In this document: positions 361-43,340 of the stretch, piece after piece
How the letters are laid out: every line of letters starts with the position of its first letter
How positions within the stretch are numbered: the first letter of the stretch is position 1
NCBI GenBank assembly: GCA_963759495.1
Contig: CAVWZL010000003.1
Coordinates: 43,234 to 107,233, forward strand
Origin: an uncultured Chloroflexia bacterium
GTDB lineage: Bacteria; Chloroflexota; Limnocylindria; Limnocylindrales; CSP1-4
DNA: 64,000 nt
Reading direction: 5' to 3'
Program-made: the position numbers and the translations under genes
The notes under the pieces: generated by a model
What the model saw: the letters and a program-made list of their open reading frames with translations, nothing else
What the model was told of the DNA's origin: nothing
The model's database searches: none

Positions 361-2083
361 TCAGGTGGGGTCGGCGAGGTGGCGCAGCGCGGCAAACGTG
401 GCCCGAACCTCGGCCGCCGTCGATGCATCCAGCGCGCCGCGCGCCGCATCCCTGAGCGTGGCGGCAGCTGATCCCCGGATCGCGCGACGGACGGGGGCCA
501 GGCTCGAGTCGGCCATGCTCAGCACCGTCACGCCGAGTCCCACCAGCGCGAGCGCGGCGACGGGATCACCGGCCATCTCGCCGCAGACGGAGAGCTCGAC
601 GCCGGCCGCCTCGGCATCGGCCGCGGCTGATGCGATCAATCGAAGCATCGCGGGATGGAGCGAATCCCGGTAGCGCTCGAGCGACGGGTTGCCGCGGTCT
701 GCGGCGAGCGTGTACTGGAGCAGGTCGTTCGTGCCAAGGCTCGCGAACCGCAGTCTGCGCGAAGAACGTCCGGGCGACGAGCACCGCTGACGGGATCTCG
801 AGCATGACCCCCAGGTCCACGTCGCCGTGGGGCACCCCGGCGGCCGCCAGACCGGCCCGAGCTTGCTCCACGAGGTCGAGCAGGATCGCGACATCGGCGG
901 CGTCGGCGACCATCGGTGCCATCACCTTGACCCGCCCGGTCACGGCCGCACGCATCGCGGCCCGGAGCTGCGTGACGAAGATGGCGGGCTGCTCGGGCGC
1001 GAGCCGCAGCGCGCGAACGCCGAGGAACGGGTTTGCCTCGGGCGGAATGGGCAGATAGGGGATCGGCTTGTCGCCACCGACGTCAAGCAGCCGGATCGTC
1101 ACCGGCCCGGGTGCAAAGGCCTCGACGACGGCCTGGTTCGCGGCCGTCTGCTCATCCTCGGTGGGCGGTGACGAGCGTTCGACGAACAGGAACTCGGTTC
1201 GGAACAGGCCCACGCCACGCGCCCCGCGCGCGACGGCCCGCGCGGCCTCCGCCGGCGTGCCGATATTGGCCAGCAGCGTCACCTCGACCCCGTCCCGCGT
1301 GACGCAGTCCAGCCCCGCCTCCGCGAGCGCGACCTCGGCTGCGGCGACGGCCGCCCGCCGTCGACCTTCGAGTCGCTCGCCGGCCGCCTCGTCGGGCTCG
1401 AAGACGACCTCCCCAGTGCCGCCGTCGATGACGAGATCCGCGCCGGCGGTCCCATCCGTACCGTGAAGGAGCCCGCGGACCCCGACGACCGCGGGGATCC
1501 CGAAGGCGCGGGCGAGGATGGCGGCGTGCGAGGTCGCCGACCCGGCCTCGAGCGCGAGCCCGAGCAACCGGTCCCGCGGCAGCCCGGCGGCAAGTGACGG
1601 CGGGATGTCCTCCGCGACAACAATGGCGGGCCCGTCGAGCGTCACGGCACGCTCGAGACCCGCAAGCCGGTAGGCGATCCGCTCGGCGACATCGAGGACG
1701 TCCTCGGCCCGCGCGGCGAGCAGCTCGTCACCGAGTGCGCGCAGCTGGTCTGCAACGGCAGCCGCGGCCATCCGGATCGCGCCGATGGCATCGTGTCCAT
1801 CGCGGATCGCCTGGGTCGCGGCGTCGAGCAGCGAGGGATCCTGGGCCATTGCGGCCTGGGCATCGAAGATCTCGCCCTCCGCCGCACCGGTCGCGGTGAG
1901 CTGGGAGGCCAGCGCCTCGAGCTCGGCCGCGGCCTCGTCCCGTGCTTCGATCAGGCGTTCGACCTCCGCGTCGGCGGCCTCGGGCGCTATCCGGCCGCCG
2001 ACCGGGGCCTGCGAGGAGCCGAGCCGAACCCACGGGCCGCGCGCGACGCCCGTCGATGCGGGCACGCCCCGCAGCGCGCGCAT
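361..2083 (-). CDS. ptsI: phosphoenolpyruvate-protein phosphotransferase (PTS enzyme I), with an apparent frameshift near 750-770
   Basis: ORF 566..2083 carries the EI N-terminal, phosphohistidine (GSATSHAAILARAFGIPAVVG) and PEP-utilising (GLFRTEFLF, IRLLDVGGDKP, MLEIPSAV) motifs. The EI C-terminus (SLGTNDLLQYTLAADRGN...SVCGEMAGDP) continues in ORF 361..894 in another frame. Confidence 0.8.
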
Positions 2084-4182: not shown

Positions 4183-4764
4183 TCAGAGCGGCGGTCGATT
4201 GCCCCGCGAGCGGCGGCCCGGCGGACGGTGCCCGGGACCCCGTTTCGTGGTGGCGCCACGGCCGGGCTGCCAGCGCGGCGCGTCCTCGTCATCGACGTCC
4301 GGGGGACTCGGCGAGCGAGCGTTGCCGGGACCCGGTGACGAGAGCTTCCGCGCCTCGAGCCGGCCGAGCAACCACGCCGCGCCGGCCGATCGGGCGCCCC
4401 GGATCCGGAGCCGGTTCCGCAGGTCGCCGTCGTCGGTCACGGCAAGGACACCGGCCGTCGCTGCGCCCCCCTCCGTGCCCGCCACCTCGTCGACGAGCGA
4501 GAGAATGACGGCGTCGGCGCTCCGTGCGCCCGAGTAGCGCACCCGGACACCTGCCGCAATCCGCTCGCCGCGCAGGCCGTGCTCGGGCGGGCCGTCGAAG
4601 ACGATCTCGATGTCGATTCCGGCCGGGATGATGCCGCGCAACCGTCCGATGAGGGCCGCGGATGGCAGCCGCTCCGCGCTTCGGGAGAGGGCGTGGAGGA
4701 GGTTGGTGCCGTCGACGATGAGGCGTGACGTCGCCTCGAGCGGGTCGCGCGGTCGACCGCTCAT
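4183..4764 (-). CDS. NYN/PIN-like domain protein (YacP-like RNA-binding/RNase)
   Basis: N-terminal LIVDGTNLLHAL motif typical of YacP/NYN domains. The C-terminal tail is Arg/Pro-rich. Confidence 0.5.
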   Translation of the reverse strand: MSGRPRDPLEATSRLIVDGTNLLHALSRSAERLPSAALIGRLRGIIPAGIDIEIVFDGPPEHGLRGERIAAGVRVRYSGARSADAVILSLVDEVAGTEGGAATAGVLAVTDDGDLRNRLRIRGARSAGAAWLLGRLEARKLSSPGPGNARSPSPPDVDDEDAPRWQPGRGATTKRGPGHRPPGRRSRGNRPPL

Positions 4765-4799
4765 CGAGGCTGCTGTCGCTGCGGCTGCGTCACGGCCGC

Positions 4800-7757
4800 C
4801 TATTGTGCGCTGATCCGCTCCGCCAGCGTCCCGAGCATGGCCATCGCGGCCTCTGGTCGCTCGGTGAGGATCGCGCGGAGGCCCTCGCCCCCGATGACGA
4901 GGCCACGGACCGGCGTCTCGGCAATGACCGTCGCCGCGCGGGGCCGGTCGCGCAGGACTGCGAGCTCGCCGATGTGGTCGCCCGCCTCATACGTTCGGAG
5001 CAGGCGCTCCGTGTCGCCCTCGGTGCGGACGACCCGGACACGACCGTCGACCAGCACGATCAGCTCGTCGCCGCTGTCGCCTTCGCGCACGAGCGCCTCG
5101 TCCTGCCCGTAGAGCCGTTCCGTGGCGGTCGCGGCGAGTCGTTGCAGGTCCTCGGGGTCCAGCTGGCTGAAGAGGGGTACGCCGCGCAGGAACAGCATGC
5201 GATCGAGCTCGCCAAGCGTCCCATCGGTATCCGCCATGGTCGGTCCTCCGTTGTGCTGCATGGGGCCAAGCCTGGAGCGGACGGCCGGATCGGGGTCGTT
5301 GCCGGCCCGCGCCGCGAGTGCGGCCTGCTGTCGCGCGAGCGCCTCCGCGCCGGCGCGAATCGCGATCGTCCGAAGCCACGGATCCGGGTCGTCCATGAGC
5401 TCGTGCACGGCGGCGTCCGCTGGCGCGCCGGCGCGCGAGCCGTCGCTGTCGAGCAGCCCCACGATCCCCTGGGCCAGCCGCCGGTCACCCAGCGCATCGA
5501 TTGCCTCGATCGCCTGGGCACGCGTGTCGGGATCGGGCGAGCGCAGACACCGACGCAGCAAGCCTGACGCCTGGGGCGCACCAAGCGCTGCAACCGCAGT
5601 CATCAGCTGGTCCTCGATTCGGCGACCGCGTCGATCGACCACGACGCGCAGGAACGCGAGCGCAGGGTCGTTGGCCCCGTCGCCGAGCGCGGTCGCGTGC
5701 CGTCGAAGCGCGCTCGCGCGCTCGACGCGTCCCAGCGCCCAGGTCCGGATCGGCCCGCGGCTCGTGGCGCCGGCACCGGCCAGTGCGAGGACGGCAGCTT
5801 CCTGCGCGCGCTCCGAGCCACGACCCAGGATCTCGACGAGTGCCTGGGTCGCCGTTCCGTGGCGTGCGATGGCGGCGGCTGCCGCGCGACGGACGGTGCC
5901 GGCATCGTCGTCGAGCGCGGCGAGCAACGCCTCGGTGGCCGCCTCGCCGGCCGGAAGAGCGCCCAGGGCGCGTGCGGCGGCAGCACGAATGCGCGCATCC
6001 GGATCACCGAGTGCGGCAGTGAGGGTCGCAGCCGGGGCCAGGTCCCCGAGACGGCCCGCAACGTCGAGGCCCGCGAGGCGCGTGGTGACGTCGCTCCCTC
6101 CCAACAGCTCGTCGAGTGCCGTGCGCGCACCGTTCGTGTCGCCCGACGCGGCGAGTGCGGCGACCCGCTCTGCTCGCACAGCGGGATTCGACTCCGCGGC
6201 GAGACGTTCGGCTGCTGCACCGGCCCTGCCTGGATCGAGCGTGGCGATCGCACGCAGCGCGGCGGCGCGGACCTCGGGGTCGTCATCGGCCAGGCGTTCC
6301 GCCAGGGCATCGGTCGCGTCCCGACTGCCCAGGCGCCCGAGCAGGTCGGCAGCAAGCCGGCGCGTGCCGGCCGCCGGATCGCGAAGGGCCGCCGCGAGCT
6401 CGTCCGACACCCCGGGCGCCCGTCCGAGTGCCTGGAGGCCGGCGCCGCCTTCGAGGACCTGCTCTGCGAGGCCGGCCCGCAGCGTTCGGACGAGCGCCTC
6501 GCCGTACCGCCGGCGGATCCGAGCCACGACCCAGGTCAGGGCGAGGGCCGTCAGCAGCCCCATGAGGAAGATCGGTGCCTGGGTCGCGCTGAACAGCGCC
6601 GTCGCGACGAGCAGGAGCACCCCGGAGAGGCTGATCCCGAGCTGTCCGGGCACGCCATCGATGAACGCCAGCACCTGCGGCCGCCGGTCCGACGGCACGA
6701 CCGTGAACATGGCGCTCCAGGCCGCGTTCGAGAGGCTCCGTTGCGCGACCTGCTGCACGACGACGAACCCGACCGCCGTCGCGAACGTGAATTGGACGAG
6801 CCACGTCGCAAAGCCGAGGAGGTAGACCACGGGCAGGATCAGTGCCGCCGTCGCGACCCCGAACCGGGCGTACACCCGGTTGGCGAGCGCGAGGGACACG
6901 AAGAACGACACGGCCGTGACCCCGGCCTGGATGAGTCCGACGGTCGTCGCGAGACCGGCTTCGTCGCCCTCGAATGCGCGCTGCAGGGCGCCCTGGTACG
7001 GGAACGTGACCGAGAACAAGAGGACGGAGAACAGGACGTACCCCACGGCGACGAGGCGAAGGAGCGGAGAGGCGCGGACGTCGTCGAAGCCGCGCCGGAG
7101 CTGTGCCCGGAGCGACACCCGACTCGGGGCCCTGCCGGCTCCCCGTTCCGTGCCTGCTGGGCTGCCCGGTCGGGCGCCGACGATCCGCGCGACGAGGGCC
7201 ACGGCCGCCACCAGCAGCACGGCATCGAGCACGATGAGGTTCTCGGTCCCAAGCACGGAGGCGAGCGGACCCGATGCGAGGGTCCCGACGAAGCTGCCCG
7301 CGATCGCCGCGCTCGTGCACAGCGGGAAGAGGCGCTTGGCCTGGCGCACGTCGAGCGTCGTTCCTGCCACCGTCCAGACCACCGTGAGCAGCAGGGCGTT
7401 CACGACGTTGACGACGACCCAGAGCAGTCCGTAGACGGCGACGGTGTCCGCGACGGCCGCCACCCGGAGCACGATCAGCGTGCCGGCAAAAGCCACGAGC
7501 AGCCCGACGAAGAACGGACGTCGCGGAACTCGCCCGATCGCGGTCCCGTAGCCGAGCGCGACGACCAGGCTCACGAGCCCGAGCGCGATGAACAGCCAGG
7601 GAAGGGAGGCCGCTCCGACGCGGTTGAGGAAGAGCGTCGTGACGGCCACATCGCCCAGCCCGCGACCGGCCTCGATCGTGGCGAAGAGCGCGGCGAGCAG
7701 TCCGACGAGGCGTCCCTCGCCGGCGCGGACCGCGAGCAGGCCCGCGCCGAGCCTCAC
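4800..7757 (-). CDS. 12-TM MFS/TLC-like transporter fused to HEAT (PBS-lyase type) repeats and a C-terminal cyclic-nucleotide-binding domain
   Basis: 985-aa intact ORF. The N-terminal ~440 aa is polytopic membrane. The middle carries repeated PDPAVRAAALRAL-type HEAT motifs. The C-terminus is a cNMP-binding fold (LFLRGVPLFSQLD...GDELIVLVDGRVRV...GDHIGELAVL...RAATVIA). Its GTG start overlaps the stop of the upstream cyclase gene (GTGA). Confidence 0.8.
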   Translation of the reverse strand: MRLGAGLLAVRAGEGRLVGLLAALFATIEAGRGLGDVAVTTLFLNRVGAASLPWLFIALGLVSLVVALGYGTAIGRVPRRPFFVGLLVAFAGTLIVLRVAAVADTVAVYGLLWVVVNVVNALLLTVVWTVAGTTLDVRQAKRLFPLCTSAAIAGSFVGTLASGPLASVLGTENLIVLDAVLLVAAVALVARIVGARPGSPAGTERGAGRAPSRVSLRAQLRRGFDDVRASPLLRLVAVGYVLFSVLLFSVTFPYQGALQRAFEGDEAGLATTVGLIQAGVTAVSFFVSLALANRVYARFGVATAALILPVVYLLGFATWLVQFTFATAVGFVVVQQVAQRSLSNAAWSAMFTVVPSDRRPQVLAFIDGVPGQLGISLSGVLLLVATALFSATQAPIFLMGLLTALALTWVVARIRRRYGEALVRTLRAGLAEQVLEGGAGLQALGRAPGVSDELAAALRDPAAGTRRLAADLLGRLGSRDATDALAERLADDDPEVRAAALRAIATLDPGRAGAAAERLAAESNPAVRAERVAALAASGDTNGARTALDELLGGSDVTTRLAGLDVAGRLGDLAPAATLTAALGDPDARIRAAAARALGALPAGEAATEALLAALDDDAGTVRRAAAAAIARHGTATQALVEILGRGSERAQEAAVLALAGAGATSRGPIRTWALGRVERASALRRHATALGDGANDPALAFLRVVVDRRGRRIEDQLMTAVAALGAPQASGLLRRCLRSPDPDTRAQAIEAIDALGDRRLAQGIVGLLDSDGSRAGAPADAAVHELMDDPDPWLRTIAIRAGAEALARQQAALAARAGNDPDPAVRSRLGPMQHNGGPTMADTDGTLGELDRMLFLRGVPLFSQLDPEDLQRLAATATERLYGQDEALVREGDSGDELIVLVDGRVRVVRTEGDTERLLRTYEAGDHIGELAVLRDRPRAATVIAETPVRGLVIGGEGLRAILTERPEAAMAMLGTLAERISAQ

Positions 7758-10447
7758 CCGGGGGAGCCGTCCGGGACGGCCACGTCCACGATTGCCGGAA
7801 GCTCCCCGCGCGCTCGGACGTCCTCGAGGAACGCGAGCACCTCGGGTATCGACATCTCCGCCCCGCGGGCCCGGGCGCCGGCGAGCTCGGGGCCTGCAAG
7901 TGCGGCATCAAGCTGCGCGGCCGAGAAGCCGACCTGTAGCCAGCTTTCGACGTCGAGCGGCGGCCGGTACCCGAGCCGGCGTGCGTGCGCCACATAGGCG
8001 CCCATCGCGACTGCCGCCTCGTCCAGCTTTCCGGTAAACAGGAGCAGCATCGCGCCTGCGCGGAGTCCAAGCGTCGCCGATGCCGTGTCGCCCATGCGGT
8101 CCTGCAGGTGCAGGCCTCGAAGGCCACGGGCAAAGGCGTCGGCGAGCTTGCCTTCGGCCACGTCGATACCCGCAAGCCCGGTGGCCGCGAGCGCGACATA
8201 GAAGTCATCGCCGTTGCGCTCGAAGCGGCCGAGGGACGTTTCGACGATCTCGCGCGCCCCTGCGAAGTCGCCGGCCGCCATGTGGACGTAGCCCATGATC
8301 CAGTGGAGCCTCGCGAGTGAGCGCTCCTCGCCCAGCTCGAGGTACAGACGGCGCGCCTCGTCGCGAAGGGCGATGAGCTCCATCTCGGGCCCGTCCGGCC
8401 GGAACTGCGTGTGCATGTAGTTGAAGAGCGCGTCCGCGATCGCCCTGGGGTCTCCGACCGCTCGAGCAATCCGTACCTGCTGCGCGTAGTGGGCGTCGGC
8501 ACCAGGCACGTCTCCCGCCCACCAGCGCAGACCGCCAGCTGCGTCGTGCGCACGGGCGCGCCAGAGGGTCGGCGGATCGGCACCAGGCATCTCCAGGACG
8601 CGGGACGTTGTCGCCCACCCCTCGGCCATCCGCCCGCGGAACTGCCAGTAGCGCCACAGCGCGGCGACGAACCGGTGTGCTGTCTCGGCGTCGCCTGTCT
8701 CGATGGCCCAGTCGATCGCCGCGGTCGTGTTCGCGTGCTCGGCGGTGAGCCGGTCGAGCCATGGGACCTGACCTGTTCCCGGCATGTGGCGGGCCGCCTC
8801 CTCGGCGAGCTCGAGGTAGGTCGCTGCGTGACGGGCGCGGACAGCCTCTGCTTCGCCCAGCTCGGCCAGCCGGGCGCTCGCAAACATGCGGATGGTCTCG
8901 AGCAACCGGAAGCGCGGGCCGACGGCTGCGGGAACGGCCTGGACCAGGCTTTGGTCGACGAGGACGGACAGGCCGTCGATCGCCTCGACACCCGGTTCGA
9001 GGGCTGCACCGGCAACGGCCTCGATCTCGTCGAGCTGCGCCCCACCTGCAAAGACCGACAGGCGGGCAATCAGCCGCTGCTCGGACGGCTCGAGCAGGTC
9101 GTGGCTCCAGCCGATCGTGGCATCGAGCGTTCGCTGTCGTTCGGGCAGATCGCGCGAGCCGGTGCCGGGCAGGTCCAGCCGGCCGGCCAGTCGGGTGGCG
9201 ATCGTCGCCGTGCCCAGCAGCCCAAGGCGAGCCGCCGCCAGCTCGATCCCGAGCGGCAGGCCGTCGAGCCGCCGGCAGATCTCGGTGATGGCCTGGAGCT
9301 CGTCGATCCCGGGCTCGAAGCCGGGCCGCACGCGCCCGGCGCGCTCGACGAACAGACGAACGGCGTCCGCACCACCCGCGTCCTTGTCAGCAGCGGACTC
9401 CGGCATCGCCAGCGGCCGCACGGCGACTTCCTGCTCCATCGAGAGGCGGAGCGGCGCCCGGCTCGTGACCAGCAGCGACAGTCGTGGCGCCGCGCGCGAG
9501 CAGGCCCGTGAGGATCGGGGCGGCTTCGATGACCTGCTCGAAGTTGTCGAGCACGAGCAGGACGGACCGTTCGGCGAGGAACGACGTGATCCGGTCGAGC
9601 GGCGTGCTGTCGGGCGCCTCGAGCAGCGAGAAGGCTGCCGCGATCGCGCCCGGGACCAGGGCCGGATCACGGACGGTCTCGAGCGGCACGAACCACACCC
9701 CGTCATCGAAGCGGCCGGCCTGTGCGCGCGCAAGCTCGATCGCCAGGCGCGTCTTGCCGGTTCCGCCGGGGCCGGTCAGCGTGACGAGACGGTGGGACGC
9801 AAGCAGGCTGGCAGCCTCGCTCAGCTCGCGCTCGCGCCCGATGAAGCTCGTCAGGGGCACGGGCAGGTTGCCGCGCGCCGCCTGACCGCTTCGGATTGCG
9901 GGGAACTCGGCGGGCAGGCCCGGGATGACGAGCTGGTGGAGGTGCTCGGGCCGCCGAGGTCCCGCAGGCGGTGCTCGCCCAGCGATCGCGTCTGCACTGT
10001 GGGCGGAAGCCCGTCCTCGACGAGGGCACGCGTCGCGTCGGAGAGCAGCACCTGCCCCCCGTGGGCGAGCCCCGCGATGCGCGCTGCCCGATGAACATCG
10101 ACGCCCACGTAGTCGTCGCCTCCGAGCGTGCCAAGGCCCGTATGGAGGCCCATCCGGACGCGGATCGGTTGGGCGATCGGCCATGCGGCGGCTGCAAGCC
10201 CGCGTTGCGCATCGACGGCTGCGGCCACGGCGGCCGGTGCGTCGCGGAACAGCACGAGGAACGAGTCGCCCTGCGTGCCGCGTTCGACGCCGCCATGCCG
10301 TCCGAACGCCTCCCGAAGCACGGCGTTGTGATGGTCGAGCACGTCGGTGAAGACGGCGGGACCGACGTCCTGGACGAGGCGGGTGGAGCCCTCGATGTCC
10401 GAGAACAGGAACGTGACGGTCCCCGTCGGCAGCTCGCGAGCGGTCAT
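7754..10447 (-). CDS. class III adenylyl/guanylyl cyclase - NB-ARC (STAND) ATPase - TPR multidomain protein, with two apparent frameshifts near 9946 and 9493
   Basis: ORF 9851..10447 is a class III nucleotidyl cyclase (TVTFLFSDIEGST, RVRMGLHTG). ORF 9387..10466 continues with PEHLHQLVIPGLPAEFP and a P-loop (LTGPGGTGKTRLA). ORF 7754..9733 continues the NB-ARC (LLVTSRAPLRL) and a long TPR array. Same architecture as mycobacterial AC-ATPase-TPR proteins but with no LuxR HTH at the C-terminus. Confidence 0.75.
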
Positions 10448-10751
10448 CGCCCGAGGATACGGCCACGGCGTCGGCCGATCAGGTGCCCTGGGCGATGGCT
10501 GCTCCCGATATCAGCCCTCGTACTCAACCTGGAACTATTGAGCGTGACCCCTTGTCGATCCAGGGCCAATCGTGCACCCCTTTGTGCTCATTCATGCGGA
10601 ATCGATCAGCAGGGCGAATATCGGCGGGCGAGCGGGCCGCGGTGGGGGCTCGCGTGGACCGGGGGCTTCGCCCGCGACCGGCCGGGGCTCCACCTTCGCC
10701 CGCCCGGCCCCACAGCCCTGCCTCCGCCCCAGCTCCGCTACGATCCGCCGC

Positions 10752-11621
10752 GTGAGCCTCCTCCTGCTGGTCGACCTCGACGGGGTCGTGTATCGCGGCG
10801 CCGACCCGGTTCCAGGGGTCGCGGCCGTCCTCGCTGCTCGCGCCGCGGCAGGCGACGACGTGGTCTACGTGACCAACAACTCGATGCACTACCGGGCCGA
10901 CTACGTGACCCGACTCGCGTCGATGGGCGCACCCATCACGCCAGACACGGTCGTCTCCTCCGCCCGCGCAACGGCGCTCTTCGTGGCCGAGCAGGATCCG
11001 CCGCTGCGGCGCGTCCTCGTTCTCGGGGCCGGAGGGCTGGAACGCGAGGCGCGCGATGCGGGGCTCGAGGTGGTGACCGCGGCCCACGCGGCCACCCGCA
11101 TGCAGCAGGAAGGGATCGACGGCTTCGCCGCCGCCGGGTCCCCGGACGCTGTCCTCGTCGGCCTCGATCCGAACCTGACCTATCTGCGGATCGCCGCGGC
11201 CGCCGATTGCGTTCGGGCAGGGGCCCGCTTCTTCGCGACGAACCGAGACCCCGTGTACCCGACGGAGCGCGGCCTCCGACCGGGAGCCGGCTCGCTCGTC
11301 GCCGCGGTGGAAGCAGCGACTGGTGTCGTGCCGACGTCGATCGGGAAGCCCGCCCCGCGTCTGCTCGAGATCGCCGCACACGCCGTGGGTCGTGACCCGC
11401 GCGAGGCGATCATGATCGGCGACGGGATCCTGACCGATCTCGCGGCCGCCAACGCGCTCGGGGCCAGGTGCGTCTTCATGCTGACCGGCGTCTCGACCCG
11501 CGAGCAGCTGCGCGGCCTCGCACCGGCGGACCAGCCCGCGGAAGTGGCCGAGAACGCGGACGAGCTCGCCGCCGCCCTCGACCGCCTGGCGGCCGCGGAG
11601 GTACCCGCCGGCGCGGGCTGA
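10752..11621 (+). CDS. HAD-superfamily subfamily IIA hydrolase (NagD-like)
   Basis: Motif I LLVDLDGVVY, with VYVTNNS and GDGILTDLAAA motifs. The GTG start lies inside the longer ORF 10572..11621. Confidence 0.7.
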   Translation: MSLLLLVDLDGVVYRGADPVPGVAAVLAARAAAGDDVVYVTNNSMHYRADYVTRLASMGAPITPDTVVSSARATALFVAEQDPPLRRVLVLGAGGLEREARDAGLEVVTAAHAATRMQQEGIDGFAAAGSPDAVLVGLDPNLTYLRIAAAADCVRAGARFFATNRDPVYPTERGLRPGAGSLVAAVEAATGVVPTSIGKPAPRLLEIAAHAVGRDPREAIMIGDGILTDLAAANALGARCVFMLTGVSTREQLRGLAPADQPAEVAENADELAAALDRLAAAEVPAGAG

Positions 11622-11657
11622 CGGAACCGGGCGGCACCGTCGCAGCGTCTCGCCGCC

Positions 11658-12476
11658 ATGAAATCCCTGACGGCCCTCGTGGCCCTGCTCTTCGTCGTCT
11701 CAGCGTGCGGCAGCGTCACGGCCAGTGCCGGCCCTTCCGGCACCGCCAACCCGAGTGCCGCGCCGAGCCAGCCGCCGCCGGCCGCCGCCGGACCCGAAGG
11801 ACCGTGGCAGCTGACCGGCGGAACCGTCAACGGCGCCCCGCTCGTCCTCGTCGAAGGGCGGCCCGTCACGTTCATCGTCGAGGGGAAGACCGTCGCCGGC
11901 CAGTCGGCCTGCAACCACTATTTCGGCGAGTTCGGGCTCCAGGACGGACAGGTCCGGCTGACCGGGCTCGGCGGCACGGAGATGGCCTGCGACGAGCCCA
12001 CCATGACCCTCGAGGCGGCCTACATGGCGGGCCTCGCCCTGGTCGAAGCGGCGACGATCGCCGGCGACAGCCTCACGCTCGGAGGCCCCGGCGTCGAGCT
12101 CCAGTTCGAACGGCTTCAGCCACCGCCGACAGCCGAGATCGTCGGAACGGGCTGGCTCCTCGAATCGGTCATCGCAGGAGATGCGGTCTCTTCGACGGTC
12201 GGCGAGCCGGCGACCCTCATGCTCAACGCGGACGGCACCCTGACCGGCTCGACCGGCTGCCGTGCGATCACCGGACGCTATGTCGTGACCGGTGCCGAGA
12301 TCACCTTCAACGAGCTGTCGACCGAGGGCGAGTGTCCGGCCGAGCTCGCCGGGCAGGACGCACACGTCATCGAGGTGCTCGGCGATGGATTCCGGGCCGC
12401 GGTCGACGGCCAGGCGCTCACGCTCTCCGACGCCAACGGCAAGGGTCTCGGCTACCGGGTGCTCGCCGCCGAATAG
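11658..12476 (+). CDS. lipoprotein with tandem META/HslJ-like domains
   Basis: Lipobox VSAC. Two repeats carry the CNHYFG / GCRAITGRY META-domain signatures. Confidence 0.65.
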   Translation: MKSLTALVALLFVVSACGSVTASAGPSGTANPSAAPSQPPPAAAGPEGPWQLTGGTVNGAPLVLVEGRPVTFIVEGKTVAGQSACNHYFGEFGLQDGQVRLTGLGGTEMACDEPTMTLEAAYMAGLALVEAATIAGDSLTLGGPGVELQFERLQPPPTAEIVGTGWLLESVIAGDAVSSTVGEPATLMLNADGTLTGSTGCRAITGRYVVTGAEITFNELSTEGECPAELAGQDAHVIEVLGDGFRAAVDGQALTLSDANGKGLGYRVLAAE

Positions 12477-13549
12477 CCGCCGGCCGAAAGCTCCGGGACG
12501 CCCGCCGCCCACGTATCGAACGACTCGCGGAGCGGCGCGACGGCCGTCTCCTCGCCGAATGCCACGTCCAGCGCGTGCCGGTTCATCGCCCACAGCTCGG
12601 GCAGCGTGACGCCGATCCGCTCGACGGCCCGGACGTATTCCTCCGACAACGTGATGTCGGACACGGTCGTGTCGTCCGTGTTGAGCGTCACCGGGACGCC
12701 GGCCCGGTGGAGGCGCGCCAGCGGGTGGTCGGCCACGGAGTCCACGATGCCGGCCTGCGCGTTCGAGGTCGGACAGAGATCGAGGGTCACGTCGCGCGCG
12801 ATGAGCTCCTCGCACAGCTCGGCGTCGTCGATCGTGCCGGGACCATGCGCGATCCGCTCCGGGTTCACGACGAGGGCACGGCGGACCTGGGCGGCGCCGC
12901 CCCACTCCCCGGCGTGCAGCGTGATCCGCAGGCCGCCGTCCCGTGCCGCTTCGAATGCCCGCGCATGGACGAGCGGGTCGGGGAATGCGGCCTCTGGCCC
13001 GGCCAGGTCCCACCCGATGAGGCCCTGGTCCCGGAACCGGACCGCCGTCTCGGCGAGGACGAGATTGTCGGCCGGGTCGTGCGAGCGCAGTGCCGTGCAG
13101 ATGAGCCGGACGACCGTGCCGGTTCGCCCGCCCGCCTCGGCGGCACCCCGACACACCGCCGCGATCCCATCGGCGAGCGACAGCCCGCCCGCCACGTGGA
13201 GCAGGGGACCCCAGCGGATCTCGACGTAGCGCACGTGCTCGGCGGCCTTTGCCTCGACCAGCTCGGTCGTGATGCGCTCGAGCGCCTCGGCGTCCTGCAT
13301 CAGGGCGATCGGCAGGTCGAACGCGCGGAGGAGCTCGGCCTGGTCCCGGCACCGTTCGGGGGCGACGAGGGCGTCGAACATCCCGGCCCAGTCGCGCGGT
13401 CCGTCGACACCCCGTGTCCGTGCCAGCTCGAGCGCCGTGTCGACGCGGAGGGAGCCGTCGAGGTGCAGGTGGAGCTCGGCCTTGGGCATGGTCTCGACGA
13501 GGCGCCGAAGCGGCGGACCGGACAGCGTGGCGCGGGCGGGTTCGAGCAT
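12452..13549 (-). CDS. add: adenosine deaminase
   Basis: ELHLHLDGS metal-binding motif, HAGE motif and TLNTDD motif. Confidence 0.85.
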   Translation of the reverse strand: MLEPARATLSGPPLRRLVETMPKAELHLHLDGSLRVDTALELARTRGVDGPRDWAGMFDALVAPERCRDQAELLRAFDLPIALMQDAEALERITTELVEAKAAEHVRYVEIRWGPLLHVAGGLSLADGIAAVCRGAAEAGGRTGTVVRLICTALRSHDPADNLVLAETAVRFRDQGLIGWDLAGPEAAFPDPLVHARAFEAARDGGLRITLHAGEWGGAAQVRRALVVNPERIAHGPGTIDDAELCEELIARDVTLDLCPTSNAQAGIVDSVADHPLARLHRAGVPVTLNTDDTTVSDITLSEEYVRAVERIGVTLPELWAMNRHALDVAFGEETAVAPLRESFDTWAAGVPELSAGGYSAASTR

Positions 13550-18935: not shown

Positions 18936-18979
18936 CGAGCTCCAGACGCAGACGCCCCAGCTAGGGAGTGGATCCGGGC

Positions 18980-20352
18980 GTGAAGACGACGATGGCGGTG
19001 ATCCTCGCGGGCGGCGAGGGCGAGCGGCTCTCGATCCTGTCGCAGAAGCGCGCCAAGCCCGCGGTGCCGTTTGGCGGCAAGTACCGGATCATCGACTTCA
19101 CGCTGTCGAACTGCGTCAACTCCGATATCACGAACGTCGTCGTCCTGACCCAGTACAACCCGCGGTCGCTCAATGACCACATCGGGCTCGGCCGGCCATG
19201 GGACCTCGACCGCAACTACGGCGGCGTAAAGCTGCGCCAGCCGTATATCGCCCGCGGCCGGGTTGCCGAGTGGTACCGCGGGACCGCGGACGCCGTGCTC
19301 CAGAACCTGAGCGAGCTCGAGCACAGCGACGCGGACACGATCCTCGTGCTGGCCGGTGACCACATCTACAAGATGGACTACCAGCCGTTCGTCCAGGCGC
19401 ACCGACGCCGCCGGGCCGATGTCACGATCGCCGTCCGACGCGTCCCCCTGGCCGATGCCTCTCGAATGGGCGTCCTCGCCCTGGACGACAGCGATCGCGT
19501 CATCGAGTGGCAGGAGAAGCCGAAGCAGCCGAAGAGCGACCTCGCGTCGATGGGCGTCTACGTCTTCTCCAAGAAGGCCCTGCGGAAGTGGCTCAGCGAC
19601 GACCTCGCCGACTTCGGGCGTCACGTCATCCCGGCGATGCTCGATGGGGGCGCGCGCGTCTTCGGCTACCACTTCGATGGCTATTGGCAGGACGTCGGGA
19701 CGATCCAGTCCTACTGGGAATCGAACATGGCGCTGCTGACCGACGCGCCCGAGTTCGACCTGTACGACACCGACTGGGTCATCCACACCCGGTCGGAGGA
19801 GCGCGCGCCGGCCAAGATCGGGCCAACCGCACAGGTGCACCGCAGCCTGATCAGCCACGGCTGCCAGATCAACGGGACGGTCGTGAACTCCGTCCTGTCG
19901 CCGGGCGTCCGCGTCGAGAGGGCGCCGTCGTGCGCGACTCGATCATCATGTTCGACTGCGTCATCGGTGCCAGCGCGGTCGTCGACCGGGCGATCCTCGA
20001 CAAGGAGGTCGTCGTGGGCCAGGGAGCCATCGTCGGCGACGGACCCGATTTCGATCGCCCCAACAAGAAGGAGCCGAACCGGCTCAACACCGGGATCACG
20101 GTGGTCGGCAAGCGGGCCGTGATCCCGCGCGGCGCCCGGCTGGGGCGCAACGTGAAGATTGCCGCCGACGCCAGGGCCGTCGACTTCACGAGCCGAATCG
20201 TCAAGTCGGGCGAGTCGGTCGAGATCCGCGATCCGGTCCGGCGCCAGGCCGTCGACCTTGACGGGGCGTCGGCGGGAACGGCGACCGCAACGCCCCCGGC
20301 CGGTACCGCGGCGGGTGGCGGCGGCGGCAAGCGGGCCGATCCCGAGCCCTGA
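18980..20352 (+). CDS. glgC: glucose-1-phosphate adenylyltransferase, with an apparent frameshift near 19918 (GAGAGGG)
   Basis: [43 protein letters not shown]. The C-terminal beta-helix ([26 protein letters not shown]...[14 protein letters not shown]) continues in ORF 19507..20352. AGGGAG Shine-Dalgarno before the GTG at 18980. Confidence 0.8.
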
Positions 20353-25407: not shown

Positions 25408-26549
<1,142 letters not shown>

Positions 26550-26759
26550 CGAGTATTCCTCCTGTCCCGACCGGCGCATCGCGGGCCCATGCATCCAGCC
26601 GCCGCCGAAGCGGACGTCGTGGACGGGCCCCGTACGTGGCTGGCACGGGTTGGCCGCATCGTACGTTCGGGGTCCCGCGCGCGCAACCGGATTTCCGGCG
26701 TTCGCCCCCCGGCCAGGGCATCAACGGCATTGCGAATCCGCGAGACGGGGCCGTGGGCG

Positions 26760-36887: not shown

Positions 36888-36963
36888 TGGGGTGGCCTAT
36901 GGGGCTCGAACCCATAACCTTCGGAGCCACAATCCGATGCTCTGCCATTGAGCTAAGGCCACC
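36888..36963 (-). tRNA. tRNA-His (anticodon GTG) with genomically encoded G-1 and 3' CCA
   Basis: Cloverleaf: G-1, acceptor GTGGCCT/AGGCCAC, D-arm AGCTCAATGGCAGAGC, anticodon stem-loop TCGGA-TTGTGGC-TCCGA, T-arm ATGGG-TTCGAGC-CCCAT, discriminator C, CCA. Confidence 0.85.
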
Positions 36964-40565: not shown

Positions 40566-41915
40566 TCAGTACAGCTTCGGGAAGCGCGGTCCGAAGAGCG
40601 TCGAGAGGTCGGCCGAGGTCGCGTCGTCGAGCGCATCGAGCAGCGTCTGCGAGGCGACCAGCCCGTGGCGGTTCTGTGCGATGTACGCGCGGATCGTCTC
40701 CCAGAACCTCGTGTTTCCCATGCGCCGGCGCGCCGTGTCGAGCAGGTTGCCGCCCTGGATGTAGACGACCTCGTAGTAGCACGCGCCCGAATAGCGGTAG
40801 ATCGAGCGGTCGAGACGCGCCGTCGAGCACCCGCTGGACCGTGTGCTCGCGAGGACGTAGCGCGCGGCGAAATCCGTCGCGGCCTCGTCGGTGAACGGCT
40901 CGCGGACCTGGTCGCTGCCGACGAGACCGTAGAACCACTGGTGCGCGGTCTCGTGGGTCACGAGGTAGCGCGTGTTGGCCGCGGCCAGTCCGTACGGCAG
41001 CCAGACGAGCGCAGGTGATTCCATGGCCGTGCCACCGGCTGACTGCACGACGCGGAAGGACGGGTACGGGTAGGGCCCGAGGAGCGTCCGAAGCCGGCCG
41101 AACGCGCGCGCACCTTCGTCGCGGAGCCGTGCCGCGACGGTCGCGGTGCGAGCGACGCCGACGACCTTCGTCGAGCCGACGGTCGTGGTCCTCGTGATGA
41201 AATCCGGGGCGGCCGTGATCGTGAAGTCGCGCACATTGCGCGCCTCGAACACCTGGGCGAGACCGTCGGTCGCGACGCGCTCGCCGCTCGTGGCAAAGAC
41301 AAGGGCCCGGTCGGGCACGATCCTGACCTTCACGTGCGGGCTGGTGGGGGTGACGAACGGATCGCCGAAGTTCGGCCGGTCGAAGTCGATCTCGCGGCTG
41401 ACCCAGGGCAGCCACCGGTACAGGTTTGCGATCCCGTTGGCCTTCGTGAACATCCAGCTCGAGCCCGACAGCGAGGTGCGCAATCGGGCCGCGTAGCGCA
41501 CCTCCACCTGGACGGTCGCGCCGACCGCGAGCACGCCACCGAGCGGCACGATGATCGTCTGGTCGGTCACGGTGGCCTTGACGACGACCCCGTTCACCCA
41601 CGTGCCGGTGAGCGTCATCGTGCCGAGTCGAGCGGCAACGGTGTTGAGCTCGATCCGGTCGATCGAGGAGGGGGACGTGTTGCGAATCGTGGCCACCGAC
41701 TCGACCTTGACGTTGCGCGTCTCCCAGCCGATACGGATGCGCGCGTCGTAGGAGGCCTCGAGCCGGAGACTCGTTCGGTTCACGCTGCCCGGGACGAGCT
41801 GGTGGAGCCCCACGAGGGACGTGGCGTCGGCGGCGGGCACGCCGGGCGCGGGCGCAAGCGTCCCGCTCATGGCGGCGAGCGCGGCGAGCAGGACGAGCGC
41901 GATCCGGCGCATCAC
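40566..41915 (-). CDS. secreted M1-family-like zinc metallopeptidase (HExxH-x18-E)
   Basis: Signal peptide. HETAHQWFYG...TDEAATDFAA. Confidence 0.65.
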   Translation of the reverse strand: MMRRIALVLLAALAAMSGTLAPAPGVPAADATSLVGLHQLVPGSVNRTSLRLEASYDARIRIGWETRNVKVESVATIRNTSPSSIDRIELNTVAARLGTMTLTGTWVNGVVVKATVTDQTIIVPLGGVLAVGATVQVEVRYAARLRTSLSGSSWMFTKANGIANLYRWLPWVSREIDFDRPNFGDPFVTPTSPHVKVRIVPDRALVFATSGERVATDGLAQVFEARNVRDFTITAAPDFITRTTTVGSTKVVGVARTATVAARLRDEGARAFGRLRTLLGPYPYPSFRVVQSAGGTAMESPALVWLPYGLAAANTRYLVTHETAHQWFYGLVGSDQVREPFTDEAATDFAARYVLASTRSSGCSTARLDRSIYRYSGACYYEVVYIQGGNLLDTARRRMGNTRFWETIRAYIAQNRHGLVASQTLLDALDDATSADLSTLFGPRFPKLY

Positions 41916-41962
41916 CCGGGCAGCCTACCGCGGCATCGTCGACCCGGCCTAGACTGCGGGCC

Positions 41963-43340
41963 ATGACCGAGGCCCTGATCGGCGCGATCCGGACGCAGCT
42001 ACCCGAGCTGCGGCTGCTCACCGATCCGACCGACCGGGAGTCATACCGCAGCGACGAGACCGCGTACCTGGTCACCGGGCTGCCGTGCGGTGTGGCGCTG
42101 CCGACCGAGACGCGCCAGGTCGCCGAGCTGGTTCGACTGGCGGGGGAGTTTCGGGTGCCGATCGTGCCCCGCGGGGCGGGGACCGGTCTGTCGGGTGGCG
42201 CGGCAGGAATCGAGGGCGGGCTGACGATCGCGTTCACCGCGATGGATCGGATCCTCGAGATCGACGCCGACAACCTGGTCGTGGTCACCCAGCCCGGGAT
42301 CATCAACGCCGCGCTGAAGGCCGCCGTTGCCGCGCAGGGCCTGTTCTACGCCCCGGACCCCGCCAGCTACGAGATCTGCTCGATCGGCGGCAACCTGGGC
42401 ACGAACGCGGGCGGGCTGTGCTGCATCAAGTACGGCCAGACGCGGGAATCGGTGCTGGGTCTCGAGGTCGTGATGGCCGACGGAACGGTCCTCCGGACGG
42501 GCGGCAAGAACGTCAAGGACGTGGCGGGCTATTCGCTGACCCACCTGATGGTCGGGAGCCAGGGGACGCTCGGGCTCATCACCGAGGCGATCCTGCGGCT
42601 GCGGCCGACCCCACCACCGCGCCTGACCCTGCTGGCCTTCTTTGAGCGTTTGGAGGCGTCGGGCGACGCGGTGGCGGGGATCGCCCAGGCCGGTCTGTCA
42701 CCGGTCACCCTCGAGCTCCTCGATGCGTTCACGATCGCGGCTGTCGACGAGGTGTACGACCTCGGCCTGGACCGTGAGGCGGCCGCGATGCTCATGATCG
42801 AATCGGACCTGCCCGGGGATGCCGCCCGCGGCGGAGATGGACGCCGCCCGGATCGTGTGCGAGGCGGCCGGTGCCACGAGCGTCGTCCTTGCCGCCGATG
42901 CCCAGGAGGCCGACTGGCTGCGCCAGGCCCGACGCGGGGCGTTCCACGCGCTGGAGCGGCTCGGGACGGTGCGGATGGAGGACGTCGGGGTGCCCCGTTC
43001 CCGGGTGCCCGAGCTGCTCGTCGCGATCGCCGGGATCGCCGAGGGCTACGGGGTCCGCTGCGGGACGTTCGGCCATGCGGGGGACGGCAACCTGCATCCG
43101 AACTTCGTGTTCGACCATGACGACCCCGACGCGGAACGGATCACCGAGGCCGCCCGCGGCGACCTGTACCGGGCGGCGATCGCGCTGGGTGGCACGATCA
43201 CCGGGGAGCACGGCGTCGGCCTCGCGCGACGGGCGTATCTCGAGGCGCAACGAGGCCCCAATGCCGTCCGGGTGATGCGCCAGATCAAGGACGCGCTCGA
43301 TCCCCTCGGGATCCTCAACCCGGGTCGCGTGCTGGTTTGA
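41963..43340 (+). CDS. FAD-linked oxidase (GlcD / D-lactate dehydrogenase family), with an apparent frameshift near 42830
   Basis: FAD-binding PCMH domain (VPRGAGTGLSGGA) in ORF 41963..43120. C-terminal domain (CGTFGHAGDGNLHPN...GEHGVGL) in ORF 42819..43340. Confidence 0.8.

Follow-up and report, generated by a model that had tools for sequence, protein, structure and literature searches.

In a 64,000-nucleotide stretch of DNA from an uncultured Chloroflexia bacterium (GenBank assembly GCA_963759495.1, contig CAVWZL010000003.1, positions 43,234 to 107,233), referred to here as the window, two adjacent genes are, on balance, best read as one cyclic-nucleotide signaling unit conserved in Chloroflexota, in which the output of a nucleotide cyclase would act on a transporter via a cyclic-nucleotide-binding (CNB) domain. 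Both genes lie on the minus strand. The upstream gene (10447..7754) encodes a class III cyclase joined to a STAND ATPase module and a TPR-like sensor region, and the downstream gene (7757..4800) encodes a protein of 985 amino acids (aa) composed of a 12-transmembrane (12-TM) transporter domain, HEAT repeats, and a CNB domain. The open reading frame (ORF) of the transporter gene extends from a GTG at 7757 to the stop codon at 4800-4802, and its start codon (7757..7755) overlaps the TGA of the cyclase gene (7756..7754) in a sequence of 4 nucleotides (nt), GTGA, at 7754..7757. The same 4-nt stop/start overlap recurs in two related loci, designated L001 and L082. Rereading of the sequence confirmed the coordinates and ORFs of both genes as well as the translational coupling that a first-pass annotation of this DNA had reported. 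The G+C content of the window is 72%, and a scan of this GC-rich region for promoters and terminators found no element. To judge from its sequence relatives, the source lineage is Limnocylindria-like Chloroflexota and not Actinobacteria, where it had initially been placed: relatives of the transporter in a species-level genome collection stem almost exclusively from Chloroflexota, with identities of 45-61% for Candidatus Limnocylindrales and "uncultured Chloroflexia" and of 34-40% for Anaerolineales.

The linkage of the two genes was surveyed in 81 loci (80 from genomes plus L001, the closest relative, whose transporter is 84% identical to that of the window) with hidden Markov models (HMMs) of three regions of the cyclase protein and of its Anaerolineales counterpart. 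A cyclase-STAND-TPR gene is located at most 600 nt from the transporter gene in 70 loci, i.e., upstream on the same strand in 19, immediately downstream on the same strand in 49 (gaps of 10-150 nt), and in divergent orientation in 2. Among the other 11 loci, 5 have little flanking sequence and 3 contain a cyclase gene at a distance of 1.8-5.5 kb; in L071, a degenerate STAND-like gene is found 635 nt downstream of the transporter gene. The partner in Anaerolineales is a diverged protein of about 1,180 aa with the order Zn-ribbon, cyclase, AAA_16, and TPR_MalT, and when the Anaerolineales transporter served as the seed of a homologue search, only Anaerolineales sequences were obtained. With the Anaerolineales-type loci included in the 70 of 81, the pair thus persists despite divergence to about 35% identity, in three different gene orders and in no fewer than three genomic contexts. 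The identities of the two genes to their window counterparts covary over the loci (r = 0.74, n = 43), and the loci L002, L003, L044, and L082 have the whole neighborhood in common with the window. The persistence of the pair exceeds chance.

Furthermore, when 1.8 billion representatives were searched exhaustively with a profile, P0411 (2154 aa) and P0425 (2129 aa) emerged as two proteins in which both halves are united on one chain. In both of them, the N-terminal half matches the whole profile of the NTT-HEAT-cNBD family described below, and Pfam recognizes HEAT, cNMP_binding, Guanylate_cyc, AAA_16, and TPR_MalT. Each is encoded by a single ORF, the contigs are independent, and the genomic contexts are unrelated; in the compared part of the alignment, the two proteins are 47% identical and colinear to about residue 1505, including the junction. 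These natural fusions are a "Rosetta-stone" indication of a joint function of the two window genes, whose products probably form a physical complex. The proposal of the first-pass annotation that the genes form a generator of cyclic nucleotide monophosphate (cNMP) and its membrane receptor is accordingly supported by the conserved synteny and the fusions and, as detailed below, by an intact ligand-binding cassette and by frameshifts that look artifactual. A dedicated partnership of a STAND cyclase with an NTT-HEAT-cNBD protein, conserved and occasionally fused, was not found in the searchable literature.

The surveyed loci also displayed several peculiarities of gene arrangement. In a second Limnocylindria lineage, represented by L020 (8218-19225) and about 35 similar loci, the pair is located on the opposite strand between the E2 and E1/E3 genes of a 2-oxoacid dehydrogenase cluster. 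Tandem duplicates or triplicates of the cyclase-STAND-TPR gene follow the transporter gene in L005 (11387-16609), L043 (13047-20944), L048 (12800-18049), and L058 (12871-18164), and a gene for an AlkZ-like glycosylase takes the place of the cyclase gene in L042. The fusion gene of L083 is directly followed by a gene for a Ser/Thr kinase-NosD/beta-helix protein (9995-11986, plus strand), and that of L084 is adjacent to a GerE-family regulator gene (11481-12533, minus strand).

The 985-aa protein belongs to the NTT-HEAT-cNBD family as defined by Major, Embley & Williams 2017 (PMC5381601), an architecture that occurs widely in bacteria and in oomycetes and of which no member has been characterized. 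All its domains had been recognized in the first-pass annotation, which described a 12-TM MFS/TLC-like transporter with HEAT repeats and a cNMP-binding domain and overlooked that this architecture was already known by name. The NTT/TLC-like 12-TM domain comprises aa 1-435 (6453..7757), the HEAT-repeat solenoid aa 438-835 (5253..6446; Pfam HEAT_2, 3e-27, and HEAT, 8e-17), and the CNB domain aa 850-985, followed by the stop codon (4800..5210; cNMP_binding, 7e-18), all on the minus strand. An AlphaFold2 model (pLDDT 84) exhibits 6+6 TM helices whose central loop is disordered, the helical repeats of the HEAT solenoid, and a CNB β-barrel. The Pfam match to MFS_1 is weak in the window protein, and family-wide TLC is detected in 10 and MFS_1 in 9 of 26 members. 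In Foldseek, the TM part has a single good match, namely, the ATP/ADP translocator AtNTT1 (9j3m; TM-score of 0.71 on the target), with Chlamydia NTT1 next, and a family profile of the TM domain (A4, 28 loci) retrieved only NTT1 proteins from the PDB (E = 1.9e-5 and 2.2e-4). This profile was needed to reach NTT1, as a phmmer search of the PDB with a single TM-domain sequence gave no match. An invariant motif, RQAKRLFP (aa 138-145), is aligned to EAKRFY/EAKKFYP of the NTT1 proteins, and by homology the transporter may carry a nucleotide-type substrate. Among solved structures, the CNB domain is closest to the regulatory domains of PKA and PKG (E = 1e-22). Its phosphate-binding cassette, GELAVLRDRPRAATVIA (4920-4970, minus strand), was aligned to that of PKA, where GELAVLRDRPRAATV matches FGELALLYNAPRAATV; the key residues of GELA...PRAATV are identical to those of PKA regulatory subunits, and Gly930, Glu931, and Arg940 are invariant in both Chloroflexota clades. 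The cassette is hence intact and PKA-like.

The cyclase gene is distributed over three pieces on the minus strand. Piece 1 (aa 1-165, 9953..10447) contains the ATG start codon and the class III catalytic domain (Pfam Guanylate_cyc, 2.6e-11; local HMM match at 9947-10447). Translation of piece 2 (aa 166-319, 9492..9952), which is in another frame, yields a linker and the first half of the STAND NTPase, with matches to AAA_16, NB-ARC, and NACHT (local HMM match at 9489-9878), an intact Walker A motif, GPGGTGKT (9750-9773), and a Walker B motif, LLVLDNFE. Piece 3 (aa 320-897 plus TGA, 7754..9490) returns to the frame of piece 1 and encodes, according to its translation and profile matches, the remaining STAND module, including the arm/winged helix (Pfam HTH_77 in homologues, e.g., in L082), and the TPR-like sensor region (about 7808-8767). 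When joined, the pieces form a protein of 897 aa that aligns without gaps over both junctions with 16 intact homologues (880-930 aa, 50-66% identity). Guanylate_cyc scores 43.9 bits with piece 1 and 39.5 bits with the rebuilt protein (cut-off, 21.9) and is matched by 17 of 17 orthologues. Family profiles searched against the PDB ranked the adenylyl cyclase Ma1120 first among the solved relatives of the catalytic domain (E = 3e-27), followed by other class III cyclases; residues 192-534 match the NOD of AfsR (8k60, E = 4e-14), and the C-terminal third matches the TPR arrays of LGN/Pins (E of about 1e-12), the Pfam matches to TPR_12 and TPR_MalT being weak in the window protein. AAA_16 was detected in 17 of 17 members and NB-ARC in 8 of 17, and because the NB-ARC match of the window protein is borderline (23.4 versus a cut-off of 23.5 bits), the STAND assignment is based on AAA_16 and the AfsR NOD profile match. 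The architecture initially described for this protein, a cyclase with an NB-ARC ATPase and a TPR array, therefore stands with respect to the cyclase, STAND, and TPR parts, with the NB-ARC label itself on the borderline, and Pfam, profile, and structure-model analyses uphold the domain composition of both proteins. The reported absence of a LuxR helix-turn-helix (HTH) holds as well, since no GerE/LuxR domain was found by Pfam in any of the 17 aligned members; in a wider circle of 120 listed homologues, PF00196 is present in one. The STAND-cyclase type is abundant, with more than 8,000 homologues retrieved in a homologue search.

Active-site residues were mapped by alignment to Ma1120, with residue roles taken from PMC4215837. 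The metal-binding residues Asp17 and Asp61 are both present in all 58 transporter-linked cyclase domains, and so are Asp112, the equivalent of the substrate-binding D157 of Ma1120, and Arg123, the equivalent of the transition-state R168. The second metal-binding residue, Asp61, is part of the motif ERGTQGDSF (10259..10285, minus strand), as is Gly57, which occupies the position of the substrate-binding Lys (K101 in Ma1120) beside the invariant Arg56; the segment R56-D61 is invariant in the 17 orthologues. The first-pass annotation had read VERGTQGDSF at this site and suspected the loss of the adenine-specifying Lys, which is indeed absent, and the census of linked cyclases extends this to the whole family: the position is occupied by Arg in 44, by Gly in 11 (the ERGTQGD type of the window), and by Lys in 3 of the 58 domains. 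At the canonical position of the transition-state Asn, which is A164 in Ma1120 and His119 in the window, Asn is found in 45 domains, followed by Ser (7), His (5), and Gly (1), and Ma1120 is active with its Ala according to the account of its active site (PMC4215837). The Lys-Asp pair of canonical class III adenylyl cyclases is accordingly incomplete, with Asp112 kept and Lys replaced by Gly57. In guanylyl cyclases, the same account lists Cys, Ser, Thr, His, Ala, or Gly instead of this substrate Asp (PMC4215837), and its retention in the window protein argues for ATP as the substrate. In the cytidylate cyclase EaPycC, Arg (R142) at the metal-binding Asp minus 4 and Gln at minus 2 specify CTP (PMC11224242). 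The hints at the product hence conflict, with Arg or Gly at the Lys position, yet Asp retained. The PKA-like "RAA" cassette of the CNB domain is, by comparison with the PKG cassette, consistent with cyclic AMP (cAMP). Taken together, these residues make cAMP the probable product, with some reservation.

The active sites of class III cyclases form at a dimer interface. In the mechanism that we propose, the TPR region would bind a cue, upon which the STAND ATPase module might be released to multimerize, as in the analogous case of MalT (PMC4381067). In the multimer, the N-terminal cyclase domains would come together as the dimers needed for catalysis and make a cyclic nucleotide, most probably cAMP, which would be captured by the CNB domain of the cotranslated membrane partner. 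The HEAT solenoid would pass the change on to the NTT-like transporter, thereby altering its activity. As no CNB domain other than that of the transporter is encoded in the 64-kb window or in the examined loci, the latter is the obvious receptor. A comparable idea was expressed for the family as a whole, when it was speculated that cAMP from an adenylate cyclase tunes NTT activity (PMC5381601).

The cyclase gene is interrupted by two frameshifts in the deposited sequence. At the first one (−1, 9951..9953, minus strand), one base is missing and the Arg166 codon consists of two bases, so that the window shows a 1-nt gap when aligned with the intact gene of L082; at the second one (+1, 9488..9497, near 9491, minus strand), the GC run GCGCGCGGCG contains one extra base, which corresponds to a 1-nt gap in L082. 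In the DNA alignment of the two orthologues, exactly one base is missing and one is extra in the window. The L082 orthologue encodes 899 aa and has the same neighbors as the window gene. The frame of piece 1 runs into a stop at 9851-9853, and the second frameshift restores the original frame, the two indels offsetting each other. ORF-pair heuristics combined with Pfam (a GC3 frame plot was too noisy) identified at least three further conserved genes of the window that are split alike by single frameshifts. The gene for the PEP-utilizing enzyme I, ptsI (361-2083, minus strand), is split at about 759/760, with positions 12-194 of PEP-utilizers_C in the ORF 566..2083 and positions 195-290 in the ORF 361..894. 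A gene for a GlcD-like FAD-linked oxidase (41711-43340, plus strand; junction at about 42.8 kb) is divided between two consecutive ORFs, the first encoding FAD_binding_4 and positions 2-70 of FAD-oxidase_C and the second encoding positions 83-248. Finally, an NTP_transferase domain is encoded in a different frame from the C-terminal hexapeptide (LbH) domain expected to follow it (18965-20352, plus strand; junction at about 19.9 kb; ORF and Pfam analysis), which is probably another single-base assembly error. Long-read metagenome-assembled genomes of the "MFD" series often break the cyclase gene elsewhere (L003, L014, L018, L030, L031, L039, L044, L049, and L075), and the gene is unbroken in short-read assemblies of the same clade. 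The contig of L001 starts exactly at the GC-rich site of the second frameshift (L001 positions 1-3 versus about 9490 in the window), which suggests that this stretch is hard to assemble or sequence; since its sequence ends there, L001 was unable to resolve the frameshifts, which was achieved with L082.

Because other conserved genes of the window carry single frameshifts as well, the two indels in the cyclase gene very probably represent assembly errors, an explanation that, judging by these sequence comparisons, is much likelier than a dead gene, and the cyclase gene is therefore probably intact in the organism. Programmed frameshifting was also considered and is unlikely, as the break points differ among related loci and the intact orthologues are colinear. 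The first-pass annotation had seen the two frameshifts correctly, and its concern that they might mark a dead gene is not upheld in view of ptsI, the other split genes, and the intact L082 orthologue. If both indels were nevertheless real, the cyclase gene would be a recent pseudogene in this genome and the transporter would act alone or with another cyclase. The presence of the indels in the deposited sequence, the stop at 9851-9853 in the first frame, and the loss of the cyclase neighbor in some relatives (L042 and L078) would fit such a decay, which we regard as improbable, since the out-of-frame segment is conserved as well as its flanks in the protein alignment without additional damage, the −1 and +1 indels cancel, and the splits in at least three other genes point to assembly error.

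Several observations weigh against a cyclase that signals via cAMP to an NTT-like transporter. The TM domain is remotely similar to the NTTs (E = 1e-5), the window cyclase has Gly57 in place of the canonical adenine-binding Lys (Arg in 44 of 58 relatives), the transition-state Asn is His in the window copy, and the product may not be cAMP, given that Arg at the Lys position helps to specify CTP in EaPycC. L042 and L078 have no cyclase neighbor, and the neighbor in L016 (6816-9869, plus strand) is an alternative STAND partner, namely, a STAND (AAA_16)-TPR-LuxR/GerE regulator without a cyclase. Moreover, control of the cyclase by the membrane part would explain the fusions at least as well, as the cyclase is tethered there immediately C-terminal to the CNB domain. 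HEAT and TPR arrays are both scaffolds for protein-protein interaction, and in the ion-channel cyclases of Paramecium and Plasmodium, the membrane part regulates the fused cyclase. The same complex might accordingly operate with a reversed flow of information, with the NTT-HEAT part as a membrane sensor (transceptor) that is read via a HEAT-TPR contact and switches the cyclase on, the CNB domain providing feedback on the cyclase or the transporter, and the nucleotide acting mainly on other targets. The fused proteins, in which one chain extends from the membrane domain through the CNB domain straight into the cyclase, and the overlapping stop/start codons, which suggest stoichiometric coproduction, would agree with this alternative. 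It is rather unlikely in our view, because the sole CNB domain is carried by the transporter and because characterized STAND proteins sense ligands via their repeat domain (MalT, PMC4381067), whereas binding to HEAT is a conjecture here.

A role in phage defence, considered in the first-pass annotation as a Pycsar-like module, deserves separate attention. The STAND domain would then sense a phage or stress cue, and the cyclic nucleotide would open the NTT-like protein, resulting in the dumping of ATP, NAD, or other nucleotides and in growth arrest, analogously to abortive infection by Pycsar or Avs. STAND and repeat domains do resemble the architecture of bacterial NLR-like defence proteins, the combination of a cyclase with a CNB-membrane effector resembles Pycsar logic, and the Arg found at the Lys position also occurs in the cytidylate cyclase EaPycC (PMC11224242); in addition, the pair diverges faster (56-61% identity) than the flanking genes (68-91%) among close relatives, and extra cyclase copies occur in tandem in L005, L043, L048, and L058. 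However, PADLOC delivered generic domain-level matches only, PycTIR being hit through the CNB domain alone and the best PycC match on the cyclase being restricted to aa 11-80 (E = 1.4e-3, 16 bits), and the 28 PDB profile matches included adenylyl and guanylyl cyclases, with no PycC structure among them. The neighbors in the window encode a YacP-like NYN protein, a CcsA-like cytochrome c assembly protein, PtsI, a HAD hydrolase, a META-domain protein, and an adenosine deaminase, and with the 2-oxoacid dehydrogenase genes of the second lineage they constitute housekeeping flanks. The location of the pair is stable within lineages, its presence in most of the sampled related genomes is not patchy, no mobile-element genes were seen near it, and a search of 72,556 plasmids returned CNB-only matches and no full-length homologue. 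An antiphage function is therefore very unlikely, and the metabolic and assembly neighbors, the stable location, the generic PADLOC matches, the lack of a plasmid copy, and the near-universal presence among sampled relatives favor a single housekeeping signaling unit, which the pair probably represents. A variant in which an NLR-like stress or infection sensor of the core genome makes a noncanonical cyclic nucleotide, possibly a cyclic pyrimidine in view of the Arg or Gly at the Lys position, and opens an NTT-type conduit, with ATP or NAD being dumped or exchanged and dormancy as the outcome, is very doubtful; if true, the pair would follow a Pycsar-related logic that has become fixed in the chromosome and uses a transporter as its effector.

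The housekeeping unit can be compared with several known systems. Mycobacterial proteins of the Rv0386, Rv1358, and Rv2488c type likewise consist of an N-terminal class III cyclase and a STAND-type ATPase and have noncanonical substrate residues; after work by Castro et al. in 2005, Rv0386 is said to use Gln/Asn for Lys/Asp and to make cAMP with some guanylyl cyclase side activity. In contrast to this type, the window cyclase lacks a C-terminal LuxR/GerE HTH (0 of 17), keeps the partner Asp, and adjoins a CNB membrane partner, and without this HTH the output of the protein is not transcription. The STAND regulators AfsR and MalT are similar in their NOD (AfsR 8k60, E = 4e-14) and in the MalT-like TPR sensor, respectively, but their effector is a DNA-binding domain and that of the window protein a nucleotide cyclase. 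Pycsar also combines a class III-like cyclase with a CNB membrane protein (CNB-TM or CNB-TIR effector), and most linked cyclases have Arg at the Lys position as in EaPycC R142 (PMC11224242). The window cyclase differs from Pycsar in lacking a specific PycC match at the HMM or structure level and in its fusion to a STAND sensor, the partner is a 12-TM NTT-like transporter with HEAT repeats, and the genes reside in a housekeeping, vertically inherited context. Ordinary signaling by a class III cyclase gene linked to a gene for a CNB receptor is exemplified by XC_0250/XC_0249 of Xanthomonas, where the receptor is a CNB-GGDEF protein, the messenger is cGMP, and neither a STAND module nor a transporter is involved (PMC3770947). 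The previously described NTT-HEAT-cNBD proteins agree with the window protein in the order of the NTT/TLC-like 12-TM, HEAT, and C-terminal cNMP-binding domains, but no linked cyclase was reported for them and two Chloroflexi sequences were listed (PMC5381601), whereas the window protein has a coinherited, sometimes fused STAND cyclase and its Chloroflexota clade is distant from canonical NTTs. The sperm Na+/H+ exchanger SLC9C1 is comparable to the window protein in that it is a secondary transporter whose CNB domain is cytoplasmic and C-terminal, and the whole-chain Foldseek TM-score of about 0.12 indicates analogy, not homology. Bacterial MFS-CNBD fusions were noted as uncharacterized in a review (PMC10710835), and both they and SLC9C1 are of an unrelated transporter fold or family, without a HEAT linker or a dedicated cyclase partner.

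With respect to other features of the window, an adenosine-deaminase-family gene is located 2-5 kb from the pair in two different contexts, i.e., at 12452-13549 (minus strand) in the window and at 4229-5308 (minus strand) in L020. The two deaminases are about 29% identical, and their recurrence may be a coincidence or a hint of a link to purine/nucleoside metabolism. Rfam reported two elements above the gathering score, a malK-III RNA motif (26547-26649, minus strand, 74.6 bits) and a tRNA gene (36891-36962, minus strand).

The family of each protein and the location of a cyclase gene beside that of its CNB receptor (XC_0250/XC_0249, PMC3770947) were known already, and the pairing reported here overturns nothing established. 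NTT-HEAT-cNBD proteins are widespread, occurring in oomycetes as well as in cyanobacteria and further bacteria, and the Chlamydiaceae have conserved the related NTT-HEAT fusions. The coupled, conserved, and sometimes fused pairing gives two orphan families a concrete partner each and should be useful for testing both of them together. It leads to the testable idea that a cyclic nucleotide connects a ligand-switched cyclase with a nucleotide-transporter-like membrane protein, with control running in one direction or the other. In this respect, the Chloroflexota pair indicates that an NLR-like STAND architecture can serve vertically inherited housekeeping signaling and not immunity alone.

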